Part shown: positions 8,599 through 30,866 of the stretch, in pieces
How positions within the stretch are numbered: position 1 is the first letter of the stretch
Layout of the letters: each line of letters starts with the position of its first letter
Assembly: GCA_963745035.1 (NCBI GenBank)
Contig: CAVUVW010000014.1
Span: forward strand, 544,001-608,000
Length of the DNA: 64,000 bases
Source: an uncultured delta proteobacterium
GTDB taxonomy: Bacteria > Desulfobacterota > Binatia > UBA9968
Reading direction: 5' to 3'
The notes under the pieces: model-generated
What the model was told of the DNA's origin: nothing
Databases searched by the model: none
What the model saw: the letters and a program-made list of their open reading frames with translations, nothing else
Position numbers and translations under genes: made by a program

Positions 8599-10507
8599 TC
8601 ATAGCAGATCGGCCAGACCTTGCATGATCTCGTCCTGCACCTCGGGTTTATGCAAGCCTCCTAGATGACCTCCGGAAGGAAAAAACTGCACGTTCTTTTC
8701 GCCCAGAGTGTTGCTTATCCATTCGATGTCTTCCTTGGCAACGAGAAAATCGTTGCGGTTGGCAAAGTGCCGGATCTTGCCGCTTGCCCTCAGAGCGTCG
8801 CCAATCGAACGCAGATCGTTGAGCTTGAACATCTGCTCCGCGCTCTGAATTGCCGCCTCCTGCTTCATATAGTAGGGAATCACGAAGCCGTAGACATACT
8901 CCAGCCAAGAATAGTCGAGGATTTCTTCATAGGCGGGGCTGCGCCGGAACCAGCTTCGGTCGGTTTGTAAGATGCCCGAGTCCCGGCGGGTTTGAGAATT
9001 GTAAATGATCGCGGCGAGCGTCAAGCGATAGGTCAGGCCGATGATAAACTGAGCTTCAATTTCCGTCAAAGGCAGCTCGACATCCGGCTCGAGTTGTCCC
9101 TTGGCCAGGCTGAGGGTCTTCTGAAGGATGTTTTTGATGCGGCCGGCGCGCTCTTCAGGCGGGAAGGCCAGCGGCGCGTTATAAAAAGCGTCGAGCTCCT
9201 CCATGCCTAGCCTCAGTTGCACCGGCGCATCAAGGGTGATGTAGCGATCGAAGCTAACGAGCTTGTTCCCTCCGCTTTGTTCTGCGGCAGCAATAAAAAA
9301 AGCATGAAACGCTCCCATTGAATAGCCCATCAACACGCGCTTGGTTATGCGACCGGGAAATTGCGTGGCGAGGTCTCGATAGACCGCGTCGAGAGCGACG
9401 TGTGTATCGCGCGCGTCCACCGGAGTGTGACCCGGCATGGCAGCAGTTAATGCGCGTTCCATGAATTCCCAGTTGTAGGCGCTGCTGAGAATAGCCACTG
9501 AAAATCCTCGGCGATAAGCCATCTCCGCTAGCGCCAGCGCACTGCCGCTGTAGCGATGCCCGCCTAAGCCGGGCAAGACAAATGTGAGCGGTGCCGGTTT
9601 GTCCTGCAGTTTGAAATTGTAGGGCAGGTTTCTTCCCGTAGACGGCAGTGAAACCTCTCGTGTATCGATCGTCGACAGAAAGTCAGCATCTTTGACGTTC
9701 AAAAATAGCAACCCTAAACTTTCTACCGCAGCGGCTTTTTCATCCCCATACTCGAAATCTTCAACGCTTATTGACCGGTTCAACAACCATACAATCCTTG
9801 AGATAGCGTACGGGTCATAGGTCGACTCGGTAAATTGTTTATAAGACTCGACGGAATCGGTTAGCTCGTTAAAGGTAAATGCCAGACGGGGGAGAAAGAA
9901 ATAGCTTAGAGGATCGGTCAAAGAGTCCGGCCATAGGCCGAGCGCATCCCTTAGCGTTGACGGACCGAGTAGCGGCAACATTAAATACGCCGAGGGGTTC
10001 CAGCCCCAGGCGGCGAACACTTGGCCAAAATCCTCCCGCGATGGCTTAATGCCCCATTCGGTGGCGGGATCGAAGAAGCCGAGCAGTCCCACCGTCGTAT
10101 TGAGGACAAAGCGCAGCGTTTCATCGCCAGCGCCGGCTAGCCTTACCTTGAAGCAAATTGGCTAATAGATGGCGTGGATAAAGGATATTCGTACCGAAAC
10201 GCGTCAGACTATCGCGCACGGGTTTGGGTATCAAAAAGCGGTAGCCCTTGGCCAACGGGTCGGCAACTCCTAAAATCACGCCGTGATTGAAAACGCCAAT
10301 ACTTCGGTTCATCCGTTCGAGCGGATCCGAAAATTCGATGAATTCACGGGCATCAATCTCTGTCTTTTGGAATTGCTCAGCGCCCGGACCGCCATAATTC
10401 GACCAGTCGCGACGGTGCACGGTGTGACTGCAGCCCAAACATAGAAGCCCCATGAACATCCATGTTGCGTAGCGGTTCTTGCAAAACTGAAGTCCCAGCA
10501 TAAACAA
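8599..10507 (-). CDS. MlaA/VacJ lipoprotein fused to an alpha/beta hydrolase domain (frameshift ~10141)
   Basis: Lipobox LGC; DPLERMNR, RFVLNTTVGLLGFFDPA, EDFGQ and LPLLGPSTLRD (VacJ); then PGLGG, GYSMG nucleophile elbow and GGHLG. Confidence 0.8.
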
Positions 10508-10600
10508 ATCGTTTTTCTCGCGTTCTGCCAGTCTCGCTCTTGGTCTCTCTCAGTTACTTGCTTATGGCCGCTTCGCTACCAGCCCCCTTAGCCCTCCAAC

Positions 10601-10620
10601 AATTGGACCTTGGTCCAATA
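10601..10620 (-). promoter_or_regulatory. 20-bp palindromic operator, copy 1 (leftward promoter)
   Basis: AATTGGACCTTGGTCCAATA; on the minus strand TGG-TAGCGA follows, hexamer 22 nt downstream. Confidence 0.75.
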
Positions 10621-10765
10621 GATCATCCGGCGTTCGCAGGCATACCCGCGGGAGCAAGCCGTACTCGCGACAAGTCTCTATTTGAGAAGTTCAACAGTGA
10701 GAGAGAAGCGACTCCGCGTAAGCAAAATTCAAAACCCCGTTCGCCTCGGTGGGTCGGAATCTTGA

Positions 10766-10785
10766 TATTGGACCAAGGTCCAATA
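10766..10785 (+). promoter_or_regulatory. 20-bp palindromic operator, copy 2
   Basis: TATTGGACCAAGGTCCAATA; TGA-TAATTT, hexamer at 10806 (20-nt gap); upstream of the DUF3604 operon. Confidence 0.8.
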
Positions 10786-10998
10786 GTCCTGCAATTCATT
10801 CCTGATAATTTGCCCCCGGCGGCGATCCGTCGAGCGACGAGATGGTTGCACAGCTATGGCAAATCTCAGCGCTTTCGGCTTTTGGCCCGAGTAGACCGAG
10901 ACGCAGCATTTTTCGGAGCAGCGTACGGCTGGAAGTTCGGAGCCATCGCTATGAGTGCAGTTGCAAACAGCGTCAGCAAGCAAAGGATGGCAAAAACA

Positions 10999-12981
10999 AT
11001 GGCGAAAAAGAAATTACTGCTAAACTCAGCAAAAAACATCAAACGCCGTACCTTCATGAAGATCGCCGCGGCGACGGCTGCCGGCGTCGCCGTACCAGTG
11101 TTGGCGCAGATGCAGACCGACGTCGGTACGCTCGATAAGGAGCAAGCCGCTAAAGCCTTCCCCAGCAAATCGCCGTACTCGCCGTACGCGGGACACGATT
11201 TTCCGACCCGGCCGTTTTTCGGCGACACCCACACACACACGTCGTTCTCGATGGATGCCGGCGCTTTCGGCGCCCGGCTCGGTCCGGCCGATGCCTACCG
11301 CTTCGGCAAGGGACAAGAAGTTGTCGCCTCCAGCGGCCAGCGCGCCAAGCTCTCGCGTCCGCTCGATTTCATGGCGGTCACCGATCATTCAGACCAAATG
11401 GGATTTTTCCCGGATCTCTTCGCGGGCAAGGCTGAAATACTCGGCGATCCGGCGGGGCGCAGGTGGTACGACATGATTCAGTCGGGCAAGGGCGCGGAAG
11501 CAGCCGTTGAAATTATCGTGGCGTTTTCCCAGGGTACCTTCCCTAAGAAGCTGCAGTATTTGCCGGGTTCGTCGGCGTACCGCAGCGCCTGGCGCGAAAC
11601 GATCAAGACAGCGGACGATGCTAACGACCCCGGCCGGTTTACGGCCTTCATCGGCTTCGAGTGGACCTCGAACACCGGCGGCAACAATCTCCACCGAAAC
11701 GTCATCTTTCGCGAAAACGGAGAGCGCGCTCGTTTAGTCGAGCCGTTCACCGTTTATCCGCCGCTCGGCAGCGATAATCCGCGCGATCTCTGGAAATGGA
11801 TGGCGATGACGGAAGAAAAAACCGGCAGCGAAGTGCTAGCGCTGGCGCACAATGGCAATCTCAGCAACGGCCGCATGTTCCCGATCATCGAGTCGTTCAC
11901 AGGTAACAAGATCGACCGTGCTTACGCCGACGGCCGCACTCGCTGGGAGCCGCTCTACGAAGTGACGCAGATCAAAGGGGACGGCGAAACCCATCCGTTC
12001 CTTTCGCCCAACGATGAGTTCGCCAACTTCGAGCGCTGGGACAAGGGCAATCTCGATCTCAGCGAACCGAAGAAGCCCGAGATGCTCGAGTTCGAATACG
12101 CTCGCTCGGCGCTCAAGAACGGCCTCAAGCTGGAAGCAGAGCTCGGCGTCAATCCTTACAAGTTCGGTCTCGTCGGCAGCACCGACACGCACACCGGGCT
12201 TGCCGCCGTGGAAGAGGATAATTTCTTCGGCAAAGCGTCAAACTCCGAGCCCGGCCCGGACCGCGCTATTCATCCCTGGCTTAAGGCACCCAGCGGCGCA
12301 GTGATCATGGGCTGGGAGCAGACCGCTTCGGGCTACGCCGCCGTCTGGGCCACGGAAAATACTCGCGCCGCGCTTTTCGACGCTATGAAGCGCAGGGAAG
12401 TTTATGGCACCACCGGCCCGCGCATGATCGTGCGCTTCTTCGGCGGATTCGATTTCGAGGCGAGAGACGCGCAGACCCGCTTGCCGGCGAGAATCGGCTA
12501 CACCAAGGGCGTGCCTATGGGCGGCGATCTGTCGAACGCGCCCAAAGGCAAGGCGCCGACGTTTCTCGCCGCCGCTCTGAAAGACCCGATCGGCGCCAAT
12601 CTGGATCGCTATCAGATCATCAAAGGCTGGCTCGACGCCAAGGGCCAGCCCCACGAAAAGATCTACGACGTCGCATGGTCTGGGGCACGCAAGCCGGATC
12701 CGAAAACCGGCAAGCTGCCCTCGGTGGGCAATACGGTGGATGTCGAGAACGCGACCTGGACCAACACCATCGGCGCAACCGAGCTGATCGCCGTGTGGAG
12801 AGATCCGGAATTCGATCCGGCGCAGCGCGCCTTTTACTACGGCCGCGTGATCGAGATTCCGACGCCGCGTTGGACCGCCTACGACGCGAAATATTTCGGC
12901 GTCAAGATGCCGAAGGAAGTGCCGATGACCACCACCGAGCGCGCCTACACTTCACCGATCTGGTATACGCCGGCGAGCTGA
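10999..12981 (+). CDS. Tat-exported DUF3604 protein (PHP-like metallohydrolase fold)
   Basis: Twin-arginine signal KRRTFMK; GDTHTHT, VTDHS, HRNV, HNGNLSNG, GSTDTH and ERAYTSPIWY; the ORF-track start at 10540 is overextended across the promoter. Confidence 0.88.
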   Translation: MAKKKLLLNSAKNIKRRTFMKIAAATAAGVAVPVLAQMQTDVGTLDKEQAAKAFPSKSPYSPYAGHDFPTRPFFGDTHTHTSFSMDAGAFGARLGPADAYRFGKGQEVVASSGQRAKLSRPLDFMAVTDHSDQMGFFPDLFAGKAEILGDPAGRRWYDMIQSGKGAEAAVEIIVAFSQGTFPKKLQYLPGSSAYRSAWRETIKTADDANDPGRFTAFIGFEWTSNTGGNNLHRNVIFRENGERARLVEPFTVYPPLGSDNPRDLWKWMAMTEEKTGSEVLALAHNGNLSNGRMFPIIESFTGNKIDRAYADGRTRWEPLYEVTQIKGDGETHPFLSPNDEFANFERWDKGNLDLSEPKKPEMLEFEYARSALKNGLKLEAELGVNPYKFGLVGSTDTHTGLAAVEEDNFFGKASNSEPGPDRAIHPWLKAPSGAVIMGWEQTASGYAAVWATENTRAALFDAMKRREVYGTTGPRMIVRFFGGFDFEARDAQTRLPARIGYTKGVPMGGDLSNAPKGKAPTFLAAALKDPIGANLDRYQIIKGWLDAKGQPHEKIYDVAWSGARKPDPKTGKLPSVGNTVDVENATWTNTIGATELIAVWRDPEFDPAQRAFYYGRVIEIPTPRWTAYDAKYFGVKMPKEVPMTTTERAYTSPIWYTPAS

Positions 12982-12983
12982 GG

Positions 12984-13028
12984 GAGGGTCGAGGGGGGAA
13001 AAGCGACGAGGGTCGAGGGACGAGTGAG
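12984..13028 (+). repeat. heptamer array, left arm (GAGGGTC/GAGGGAC)
   Basis: gagggtc gaggggg gaaaagc gac gagggtc gagggac gagtgag immediately after the DUF3604 stop. Confidence 0.8.
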
Positions 13029-13383
13029 TCAGAGCGGACTAGAGAGCTTCGGCGCGTACCAAAAAGCGCGACAATTGTTTGATCTCGTCGCCGCGGACAT
13101 GGAGACAGTCAAGACAAATCCTCTCTGCTATCGGCTGGTATCACAACAAATGGGCAGTGCGGATTCCATCTGCGCCAACATCGAAGAAGGTTATGGAAGG
13201 TTGAGCCGGGTTGAGTATGTCCGCTTCCTCGATATCGCACGGGGCTCAGCTCGCGAAACCCGCGGGCGCTATGAGCGGATGAAGCATTGGCTAAACGAGA
13301 ATGTAGTCCGTCAACGGATCGAATTGCTCGATGAGATCATCGGCATATTGACCAGCTCTATTGAAAGGATGAGACGAAGGTGA
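13024..13383 (+). CDS. four helix bundle protein (23S rRNA IVP / Avd-like family)
   Basis: AYQKA...LVSQQMGSADSICANIEEGYGR...YVRFLDIARGSARET family signature. Confidence 0.9.
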   Translation: MSQSGLESFGAYQKARQLFDLVAADMETVKTNPLCYRLVSQQMGSADSICANIEEGYGRLSRVEYVRFLDIARGSARETRGRYERMKHWLNENVVRQRIELLDEIIGILTSSIERMRRR

Positions 13384-14378
13384 AAGGCCACGAAATCGTT
13401 TCGAAAAACGACCTAGGAGACGCCAACAGCACGACAGCATCACTCTTCCCCTCGACCCTCGACACTCGACACTCTTCACCCGACACCCGACCCTCGTCCC
13501 TCCGGCGATTTCTCCGCGAGCCGCTGCTGCATTTCCTGTTGCTCGGCGCATTGATCTTCGTGGCGTTCAAATTCATTTCTCGCGAGACCAGCGAACCGGG
13601 AAAGATTCTCATCACTCAGGGCCGCATCGAATCGCTCGAAACCGCGTTCAGCCGCACCTGGCGGCGGCCGCCGAGCGCAAGTGAATTGGAAGGCTTGCTT
13701 CGCGACTACGTTCGCGAAGAAGTTTTCGCGCGCGAAGCGGTCGCCCTCGGACTCGACAAGGACGACACGATCATCCGCCGGCGGCTGCGCCAGAAACTGG
13801 AGTTCATCTCCGAAGACGTCGCCGCCTACGCCGAGCCCACCGATGAGCAATTGAACGCGTATTTGAAAGCACACCCCGACACGTTTCGCGGCGATCGCCG
13901 GTTTAGCTTTAGCCAGGTGTATCTCGACCCGCAGCGGCGCGGCGCCAATCTCAGCCGCGATGCGGCGCAAGTACTCGCGCAGCTCGGTCGTCCTGGCAGC
14001 AAAGTTGATCCTGCAACGCTCGGCGACTCTCTCCTGCTCGAGAACGAGTTCAAGGCGCTGCCGGCGAGCGAAGTGGTGAAACAATTCGGCGAGAAGTTTG
14101 CCGCGTCGCTCGGTGAGATGACAACGGGACAATGGCGCGGGCCGATCGAGTCCGGCTTCGGCGTGCATCTGGTTTTGTTAAGCGAGCGCACCGAGGGCTC
14201 GCTGCCGGCGCTGGAAGACGTCCGCGCCGCGGTGCGGCGCGAATGGACCAACGCGCGCCGGATGGAAGCGAACGAAAAGTTCTATCAAACCCTGCTGCAA
14301 CGCTACATCGTGACCATCGAGCGGCCGGAAGTTGCGAAAAGCGCGGGCGGGAAACAAGTCGCCGAGGCGCGACAATGA
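13380..14378 (+). CDS. PpiC/rotamase-type peptidyl-prolyl isomerase domain protein
   Basis: LREPLLHFLLLG membrane anchor, LGLDKDDTIIRRRL, WRGPIESGFGVHLV; first ~40 aa derive from the inserted repeat region. Confidence 0.85.
   Translation: MKGHEIVSKNDLGDANSTTASLFPSTLDTRHSSPDTRPSSLRRFLREPLLHFLLLGALIFVAFKFISRETSEPGKILITQGRIESLETAFSRTWRRPPSASELEGLLRDYVREEVFAREAVALGLDKDDTIIRRRLRQKLEFISEDVAAYAEPTDEQLNAYLKAHPDTFRGDRRFSFSQVYLDPQRRGANLSRDAAQVLAQLGRPGSKVDPATLGDSLLLENEFKALPASEVVKQFGEKFAASLGEMTTGQWRGPIESGFGVHLVLLSERTEGSLPALEDVRAAVRREWTNARRMEANEKFYQTLLQRYIVTIERPEVAKSAGGKQVAEARQ
13447..13502 (-). repeat. heptamer array, right arm (8 units, reverse complement of the left-arm unit)
   Basis: tcccctc gaccctc gacactc gacactc ttcaccc gacaccc gaccctc gtccctc. 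Confidence 0.85.
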
Positions 14379-15453
14379 ACAGAATCGGGGTGACACGAGT
14401 GTCGGGTGTCGAGTGTCGTACCGCGCTCTCGCATGTCGCACCCTTTGCTTACTTCTGTTTCTTTTTTCCGGATTTCCTCTGTTCGCGCACGAAGTGCGCC
14501 CGGCTTATCTGGAGCTGCGTCAGACCGGCGCCGAGACTTACGACATCTTGTGGAAAGTGCCCGGGCAGGGAGAAGATCTGCGCCTGGGACTTTACGTGCA
14601 ACTGCCGGAGAGCTGCTCGAACCTGACGCAACCGCGCGGCGCTTTCGCCGCCAACGCTTATACCGAGCGTTGGAGCGTCCAATGCTCGGGAGGCTTGAGC
14701 GGCGGCACGATCCGCATCGCCGGCCTCTCGGCGACAATGACCGACGTTTTGGTGCGCATCGAGCGAGTCGAGGGCTCGACCCAGATCACTCGCCTCACGC
14801 CGGCGACTTCCTCATTCGTCGTCGAAGCCGCCCCGAGCCGAATGGAAATCGTCCGTACCTATCTCATTCTCGGCATCGAGCACATTTTAACCGGCGTGGA
14901 CCATCTGCTGTTCGTGCTCGGCCTCCTACTGCTGGTGCGCGGATTCGGCCGGCTGGTCAAAACGGTGAGTGCATTTACCGTCGCGCACAGCGTCACCCTG
15001 GCCTTGGCGACGCTCGGCTTTGTTCATGTTCCCTCTCCGCCAGTGGAAGCGGTGATTGCCTTGAGCATCGTCTTTGTCGCCAAAGAAATTCTCCGCAGCC
15101 GCGGCAGGTCTTCGTCCTCCCAGCCCAGTCTGACGGAGCGCCAGCCGTGGCTCGTCGCATTCTCTTTCGGGTTGTTGCACGGGTTGGGATTCGCGGGCGG
15201 ATTGAGCGAGGTGGGATTACCGCAAGGACACATCCCGCTCGCGCTGCTGCTGTTCAGTATCGGCGTCGAGGTCGGCCATTTCGGTTTCATCGCGGCGGTG
15301 TTCGCATTGATGGCGCTCGGTCACCGAGCGATGCAATGGCTGCGCTTACCGCAAACATCGCTTCATCGATCCGCCGTGCTCCGACTGCTGCCGCCGTATG
15401 CGATTGGCGGCACGGCAATGTTCTGGCTGATTGAACGAATCGCGGCGTTTTGA
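14375..15453 (+). CDS. HupE/UreJ family membrane protein (apparent frameshift near 5' end)
   Basis: AHEVRPAYL, GIEHILTGVDHLLF, FTVAHSVTL, FGLLHGLGFAG; ATG 14375 overlaps the upstream stop but is out of frame with the body. Confidence 0.85.
14388..14417 (+). repeat. heptamer array (GAGTGTC type)
   Basis: gggtgac ac gagtgtc gggtgtc gagtgtc. Confidence 0.7.
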
Positions 15454-15831
15454 ATCACGGAAGTCGGAAATGAGTCATAAGTCGCAACCACGTTGAACGC
15501 AAACGCGATGCACGGATGAAAAGCTGTTTTTTGCAGACGACGTCCGACGCACCAACCAGAGAGGAGGTATGACAAAGGCGAAAGAAGTTAGGCTATCTAA
15601 AAATATGGCGGATTTGCCGCGAAGGCTCACGTTAGGATGGCAACGAGAATTCCACGCGAGATTACCCCGCCGAACTCCATAAAGACAGGAAGCAGCACGC
15701 CGAGATTTTGACGTCGCGCGGCAGAATGAGCTCCCGCTTTATATCGGATGGGAGCATAATAGCCGTGGCAATTTGTGAGACGGAATAAGCTTCGAGGTGT
15801 AAGCCAACCTAACTGCATTAGGAGGTTCGCT

Positions 15832-16542
15832 ATGATCACTCGGAATCGTGCAATATCAATCTTTTTCGCCTTAGCCGTGCTTTCCGGATGCGCGTCGACG
15901 AAGGTTACCCAGCAAACACCCAGGGTAAACGGGGGGCTCGCCCGCCCCAATCAAATCTGGGTCTACGACTTCATCGCCGACCCGGCCAAGGTCCCCGCCG
16001 ATTCCTATATTAGCGCCGATCTCAGTGCGCCGACCACGCCTCCGACCGCCGAGGAACTGGAAACCGGGCGTAGGCTTGGCGCCATCATCGCCAAAAGCCT
16101 GGTTGCGCATATCCAGGCCATGGGTCTTCCCGCAGTGCAAGCCGGTCCGGGAGCAGCGCCACAAGTTGGCGAGGGTGTAATGCGTGGCTATTTGGTCTCG
16201 GTCCAGGCCGGCAGTGGGGCCAAGCGTTTTGTGATTGGATTCGGCGCCGGGAGCTCGGAAATGTATACGGTGGTGGAAGGCTACGAGATGACGCCCGAGG
16301 GCTTAAAGAAAGTTGGATCAGGGACGCTTAGTTCGTCTGGAAGCAAGACGCCCGGCATTATCGCGCCGGGCGCTGTCGCGATTGCGACCGGCAATCCGCT
16401 AGGACTGATCGTGGTTGGCGCGACGAAGATTTATGGCGAGGCGAGCGGCAGCAATACGCTTGAGGGGAGAGCCAAGGCGACCGCCGACGCAATTGCAGAG
16501 GAGCTCAGGATCCGATTTCGGCAGCGCGGCTGGATCAATTGA
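15832..16542 (+). CDS. DUF4410-like lipoprotein
   Basis: SD AGGAGG, lipobox LSGC, RPNQIWVYDF, RFVIGFGAG. Confidence 0.8.
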   Translation: MITRNRAISIFFALAVLSGCASTKVTQQTPRVNGGLARPNQIWVYDFIADPAKVPADSYISADLSAPTTPPTAEELETGRRLGAIIAKSLVAHIQAMGLPAVQAGPGAAPQVGEGVMRGYLVSVQAGSGAKRFVIGFGAGSSEMYTVVEGYEMTPEGLKKVGSGTLSSSGSKTPGIIAPGAVAIATGNPLGLIVVGATKIYGEASGSNTLEGRAKATADAIAEELRIRFRQRGWIN

Positions 16543-30831: not shown

Positions 30832-30866
30832 GAGGGACGAGTGTCGAGTGACAAGAGTCGAAGCTC
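30832..30866 (+). repeat. heptamer array, left-arm orientation
   Basis: gagggac gagtgtc gagtgac aagagtc gaagctc. Confidence 0.7.

Follow-up and report, generated by a model that had tools for sequence, protein, structure and literature searches.

A four-helix-bundle gene between inverted short-repeat arrays is very probably a transposase-free mobile cassette

A 119-aa four-helix-bundle gene of the IVP/S23p family, bracketed by inverted arrays of heptamers, has entered the first codons of a PPIC-type PPIase gene in the window, the whole 64,000-nucleotide stretch of DNA analysed here. We regard this cassette as a likely mobile element because close relatives of the gene and its repeats occupy many unrelated junctions without a transposase, and we put the probability that it is a mobile unit at about 0.95.

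All parts of the locus lie on the plus strand. The upstream host gene encodes a DUF3604 protein (ORF limits 10540–12981; PF12228, 815.8 bits), whose true start is probably later than 10540, near a TAT-like signal matched at aa 166–186 of the ORF. The left arm (12984–13028), a purine-rich array of the 7-mers GAGGGTC/GAGGGAC, begins 3 nt past the DUF3604 stop. It is present as originally described but thinner, with three strict units only (GAGGGTC twice, GAGGGAC once) besides partial ones, and a purine run divides them; left arms of relatives have more units and an ATG-bearing spacer that is missing from the window allele. The left arm supplies the GTG start of the IVP gene (13024–13383), the stop of which overlaps a second GTG, at 13380, from which the PPIase gene (13380–14378; PF13145) can be read in frame, as had been predicted. 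The PPIase gene is split at its first codons. A spacer (13384–13446) follows, its in-frame translation forming the new PPIase N-terminus, and leads into the right arm (13447–13502), eight in-phase reverse-complement heptamers (TCCCCTC GACCCTC GACACTC GACACTC TTCACCC GACACCC GACCCTC GTCCCTC) through which the PPIase frame stays open. This array, also seen as predicted, stops exactly where the conserved part of the PPIase, RRFLREPLLHF, starts at 13503. The whole unit of left arm, IVP gene and right arm measures ~520 bp, and the GC content of the IVP gene is 53%, against 61–62% in the flanking genes. No Rfam match was found in 10000–16000.

Contigs of the DNA runs X2 and X3, from one study, cross 12924–13618 and 12924–13556 with 2 and 1 differences, respectively, so the cassette is not an assembly artefact. 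In run X1 of the same study the cassette is mostly uncovered (61% of the run read). Downstream, the HupE/UreJ ATG (14375–14420) overlaps the PPIase stop and is out of frame by one base in the window; X1 and X9 contigs have an extra A after 14380, and the frame offset may therefore be an assembly slip. A lone left-type array of three units (14397–14417, plus strand) lies at the 5′ end of the HupE/UreJ gene, encodes part of its N-terminus and is also found in alleles without the cassette. Another isolated left-type array of the cassette's own unit is located at 30832–30852, with no partner arm seen. On the minus strand at 8599–10507, an MlaA lipoprotein match is divided between two ORFs, and a hydrolase-like region is fused to the second of these.

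In profile searches, the 119-aa ORF matches PF05635 at 61.5 bits (cut-off 33.8) and TIGR02436 at 67.8 bits (cut-off 24). It is the only ORF in the cassette, which encodes no transposase. The predicted structure of the IVP protein (pLDDT 93) has a four-helix fold, with 2GSC and 2RLD among its top 10 matches (TM 0.82 each). The original prediction had related the protein to Avd; the relation lies in the fold (TM 0.74 to 4DWL, 13% identity, E value 0.29), and a common function is only a possibility. With a median dN/dS of 0.108 over 377 pairs, the IVP protein evolves under purifying selection. For pairs at different sites, dS is near 0.5, so that movement, though real, is slow.

Comparison with related alleles indicates that the cassette is an insert. 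Among 80 DUF3604 loci, 42 have a PPIase match downstream and 38 have none. The IVP gene is not a constant member of this operon in relatives: 41 of the 42 DUF3604-PPIase junctions are without an IVP match, the remaining one holding a deleted IVP remnant (the G019 allele), and the gap is at most 100 nt in 32 of the 42. A PPIase match is present in 18 of 151 related genomes, six of them close (79–93% aa) besides the window's own. Two of these six alleles are empty (G004, G085) and four hold damaged cassettes, with decay by internal deletion among them: the G018 allele has a frameshifted IVP gene and a nested 9-mer hairpin, G019 has an internal deletion and a right arm that is partly gone, and in G078 and G027 another hairpin stands in place of the IVP core, the G078 right arm again being partly gone. 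At the junctions L083, L086 and L088, the decaying IVP gene is invaded or replaced by other repeat hairpins. Contigs of runs X6 and X9, from two studies, join 12973 directly to 13515 with an empty-type N-terminus; the one from X6 has 16 mismatches over 377 bases of the PPIase gene. Another joint, 13021–13449 with 8 letters between (X5, depth 2), possibly belongs to another locus and was left uncounted.

Empty alleles have MESSLVKQLMREP, or something close to it, as their PPIase start. The former ATG GAA of the PPIase gene is still present left of the left arm in G018, G019 and G078, which places the point of entry at about codon 3–4 of that gene. The proposed insertion into the operon thus stands as an insertion, but its site, judged from these alleles, is within the PPIase 5′ end and not between genes. 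No target-site duplication is visible, empty and filled alleles having diverged at the junction, and no empty/filled pair gave base-exact ends, all being too diverged; no base-exact empty site was found among the paralogous flanks searched.

In each of the 10 filled alleles, which come from five genomes and five metagenome loci and are not all independent, an ATG or GTG in frame with REPL overlaps a TGA, and this restart is kept over seven spacer lengths of 57 to 168 nt. Operon translation is preserved at this junction, as had been proposed, but elsewhere an open overlapping restart occurs at only 7 of 35 arm-bearing loci. The restart is therefore best seen as local repair by the host, and a built-in restart was rejected as a general design. 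Within the window's IVP subfamily, 48 of 73 stops overlap ATGA/GTGA, and only 10 of these open at least 100 aa.

The gene and its arms travel together. For the IVP protein, 291 metagenome relatives were confirmed, and the best 80 of them (59–89% aa) were analysed further. Within these best 80, at least two units per arm are found in 55 of the 67 close homologs having both flanks, and 5 of the 80 are located in the DUF3604-PPIase operon. Representative other neighbours, from 23 scanned proteins of which five gave no match, are a kinase with a response regulator, radical SAM, FGE with a sulfatase, DUF1622, a deaminase, an N-acetyltransferase, a globin, DHDPS and DUF2950. Together with the empty alleles, the presence of this subfamily at many unrelated junctions bears out the prediction of a transposase-free inserted unit. 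For 61 IVP pairs of at least 84% identity, counts over which are not independent, both flanks are shared in 19, neither in 17, only the downstream one in 21 and only the upstream one in 4; at most unshared flanks the alignment stops in, or just inside, the arms. Among 166 candidate stretches of viral contigs, no relative was confirmed.

The same junction was also occupied by several lineages, to judge from the trees. The six IVPs found at DUF3604-PPIase junctions are spread over four separate places in the IVP tree, and monophyly of this group, which was named before the tree, is rejected (AU p=0.0013). In the PPIase tree, the window's PPIase is sister to the empty G085 allele (100/100) and outside a filled clade (99/100). 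The flanks are mosaic, however, and some of the discordance could be due to ordinary homologous recombination between islands. A second, intact IVP cassette, with the unit GGGATAC/GTATCCC, lies at the PPIase-HupE junction of G078 (L086, G078:C577). Translation from an ATGA overlap turns its right arm into the N-terminus of HupE.

The two arms of the window cassette can pair over 57 nt with 72% complementarity. Their duplex energy is −67.5 kcal/mol, compared with −50.0 ± 4.9 kcal/mol for shuffled arms, and none of the 500 shuffles reached so low a value. The expected folding of the unit is thus found for the arms, but the whole 551-nt stretch, folded as RNA, has no unusual stability against shuffles (z = −1.0). 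Left and right arm compositions show no significant correlation, and the unit, CGRGKGN, looks more like a degenerate motif than an optimised stem of RNA. In-register matches at the variable unit position had seemed significant; they were dropped, as the alignment had been optimised for matches. By a crude genome-wide count, there are 8 unit doublets against 8.2 expected, and the unit of the window cassette is therefore rare in this genome.

Arms of this kind are a general feature of the family. Profile searches give 18 PF05635 matches in the genome, and at least one PF05635 gene occurs in 53 of the 61 genomes of the host's family. We scored 43 IVP loci, made up of 13 from the own genome (after merging two pieces and leaving out four fragments), the 29 top loci from the family survey and the second G078 cassette. 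The window locus has an arm score of 50; among 1903 small control ORFs, a set that still contained IVP genes, the median is 19 and the 99th percentile 33. Scores above this 99th percentile were obtained for 35 of the 43 loci, in agreement with the prediction that paralogous four-helix-bundle genes are flanked by arrays; unit length ranges from 6 to 9 bases, and different loci have different units. One high-scoring control, a GIY-YIG gene amid several inverted repeats (L221, C19:109500–110350), was left out of the count, its repeats being non-tandem. Ten of the 18 genomic matches lie within C13:1773–1800 kb, where an insert of 2040 nt, resembling a group II intron and holding a broken RT, interrupts an IVP gene (C13:1787249–1789573).

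Stop codons mark the preferred sites. Of the 35 IVP cassettes, 30 lie at most 25 nt from a stop codon on their own strand, and stop adjacency is seen in 18 of 32 cassettes, whereas a mirrored control gives 2 of 32. The genome also contains 119 gene-less hairpins of like design with a period of 7–9. With gene calls that are rough ORFs, 80 of 112 such hairpins start at most 25 nt from a stop, and in roomy spacers 17 of 37 lie at most 15 nt from a stop (5.7 expected); divergent spacers are avoided, with 7 of 119 against a background of 22% (p 3e-6). Some abundant hairpin families are without an IVP partner in the genome. Paralogous ABC binding-protein genes have different unit families at one post-stop position; tandem paralogs of this kind are found at C17:181–204 kb (part in L222) and on other contigs, and the loop of one hairpin in that region holds the ATG of the next gene, with the right arm translated as its N-terminus. 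All three GxxExxY (PF13366) loci (C11:223391, C2:55008, C13:808681), two of them broken, are likewise bracketed by inverted 8- or 9-mer arrays.

In the mechanism that we favour, at roughly even odds, the protein binds the repeats of its own arms and a host recombination activity joins these arms to DNA beside a stop codon. A promoterless, transposase-free unit of ~520 bp would land in this way in the first PPIase codons. The IVP protein may assemble into an oligomer like that of Avd and recognise the degenerate unit CGRGKGN, and since no promoter-like site was found in 12700–13700, it is likely to be expressed by read-through from the host operon. Joining would take place on DNA, with imprecise ends and no clear target duplication. 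The gene-less hairpins would be deletion derivatives, possibly moved in trans, and the in-frame PPIase restart would have been selected by the host after insertion. A step at the DNA level is favoured because the arms show no G-U excess and no significant correlation in composition, no intact PF00078 RT was found and the repeats of Y1 transposases differ: longer genomic matches to the latter carry other inverted repeats and not the cassette arrays. A RAYT was rejected as mobiliser, its flanks also differing from the cassette arrays, and no candidate catalytic partner with cassette-type arms was found in the genome.

A route through RNA is the strongest alternative, and one that we consider unlikely; here, the arms would pair in the transcript, RNase III would free the unit, and the Avd-like protein would recruit a host RT to copy it into new sites. 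The fold common to IVP and Avd, for which homology is also argued in the accessible text of PMC10053308, suits this route, as do the orientation of the cassettes, which run with the upstream gene and abut stop codons, and their varying unit numbers. In the available parts of the respective reports, Avd and its RT produce cDNA from RNA (PMC6182149) and RNase III cuts the Coxiella IVS at its first heptamer (PMC4990558). That these nearest characterised relatives act on RNA counts against a DNA-level step. On the other hand, the Coxiella IVS is described there as rapidly degraded once excised (PMC4990558), and the whole element here folds no better than shuffles. Sense-strand arm mismatches have no bias of G-U over A-C (70 vs 65; 104 vs 90), with 1 G-U and 4 A-C at the window locus itself, which leaves the predicted excision or processing from the mRNA unsupported. 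The search for an intact PF00078 RT found none in this 92.6% complete genome, its sole matches being one broken RT on another contig. Over the cassette, the RNA runs X18 and X19 give scattered short contigs (contig-level, 5–7% of words).

The IVP gene might instead be a passenger kept for its benefit to the host, in REP-like hairpins moved by another enzyme. The gene-less hairpins far exceed the IVP cassettes in number and include families without an IVP, the GxxExxY loci share the design, and IVP genes are reported within cas operons, with no comment on arms in the accessible text (PMC3936711). We judge this still less likely than the RNA route: arms are found on most IVP genes, with several different units, while the window subfamily retains its own; the filled alleles of close relatives are all broken (4/4), which would be odd for a useful gene; and an enzyme bearing such arms was not found in the genome. 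It is improbable, finally, that the cassette is mainly an intervening or regulatory element of the mRNA, its stem being cut or tuning the expression of the DUF3604-PPIase-HupE operon. A stable duplex is possible between the arms and the in-frame restart is kept in every filled allele, but the restart preserves the host gene with or without a stem, nearly all DUF3604-PPIase junctions do without a cassette, and in kin the cassette decays, down to the partial loss of right arms.

REPIN-RAYT systems comprise a gene within inverted repeats and many gene-less hairpins of those repeats near gene ends. The many gene-less inverted hairpins near 3′ gene ends described above are a similar feature, but the cassette encodes a four-helix bundle in place of a Y1/HUH transposase, and its arms are tandem arrays of short units. 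Cyanobacterial STRR heptamers are a possible further lead for comparison. The closest known element is the ORF-bearing IVS of 23S rRNA, and the cassette is a variant of the IVS design outside rRNA. According to PMC4990558, the 23S IVS of Coxiella encloses an S23p ORF in terminal inverted repeats and has tandem heptamers, in varying number, before the start codon. Both elements thus combine a PF05635 gene with terminal inverted repeats and upstream heptamers of variable number, and both are sporadically distributed, with decay of the ORF in some strains (PMC4990558). Unlike the IVS, the cassette lies in a protein-coding operon between DUF3604 and PPIase flanks, and not in rRNA helix 9, 25 or 45; it is found at many unrelated junctions, with an ORF under purifying selection across sites. 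With the same build outside rRNA, it therefore works like an IVS and is not a member of that class.

Paired opposite-strand hepta- and octanucleotide arrays of several families lie 3′ or 5′ of genes in Geobacter metallireducens and were interpreted as binding sites of the global regulators IHF/HU (PMC2700814). As tandem 7- or 8-mers in inverted pairs, they resemble our gene-less hairpins; in contrast to the cassette, the accessible part of that report names no four-helix-bundle gene and proposes no mobile unit (PMC2700814). Avd, described in the available text of PMC6182149 as a pentameric, positively charged barrel that binds DGR RNA, shares the four-helix fold of the cassette protein, whereas the cassette, unlike a DGR, has no RT gene adjoining. 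No description of arm-bracketed IVP genes outside rRNA was found in the searched literature, whose coverage left out most subscription papers.

We tentatively suggest, with somewhat less confidence than in the mechanism itself, that PF05635 proteins are specificity factors of widespread and undescribed transposase-less mobile elements. Each subfamily would read its own array of 6- to 9-base units, insert beside stops, seed hairpins and shuffle operon modules at its arms; the rRNA IVS would be a member that landed in rRNA, and the Avd of DGRs a domesticated copy. This offers a testable function for a protein family that is very common and whose function is unknown, a possible origin for the ORF-bearing intervening sequences of rRNA, and also a source for the paired hairpins of short repeats taken for regulator sites in Geobacter. 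The window locus provides matched empty, intact and decayed alleles. If the suggestion is true, genes would move and operons be shuffled by a new route, through a transposase-less element of 500 bp with stop-start junctions as its targets.
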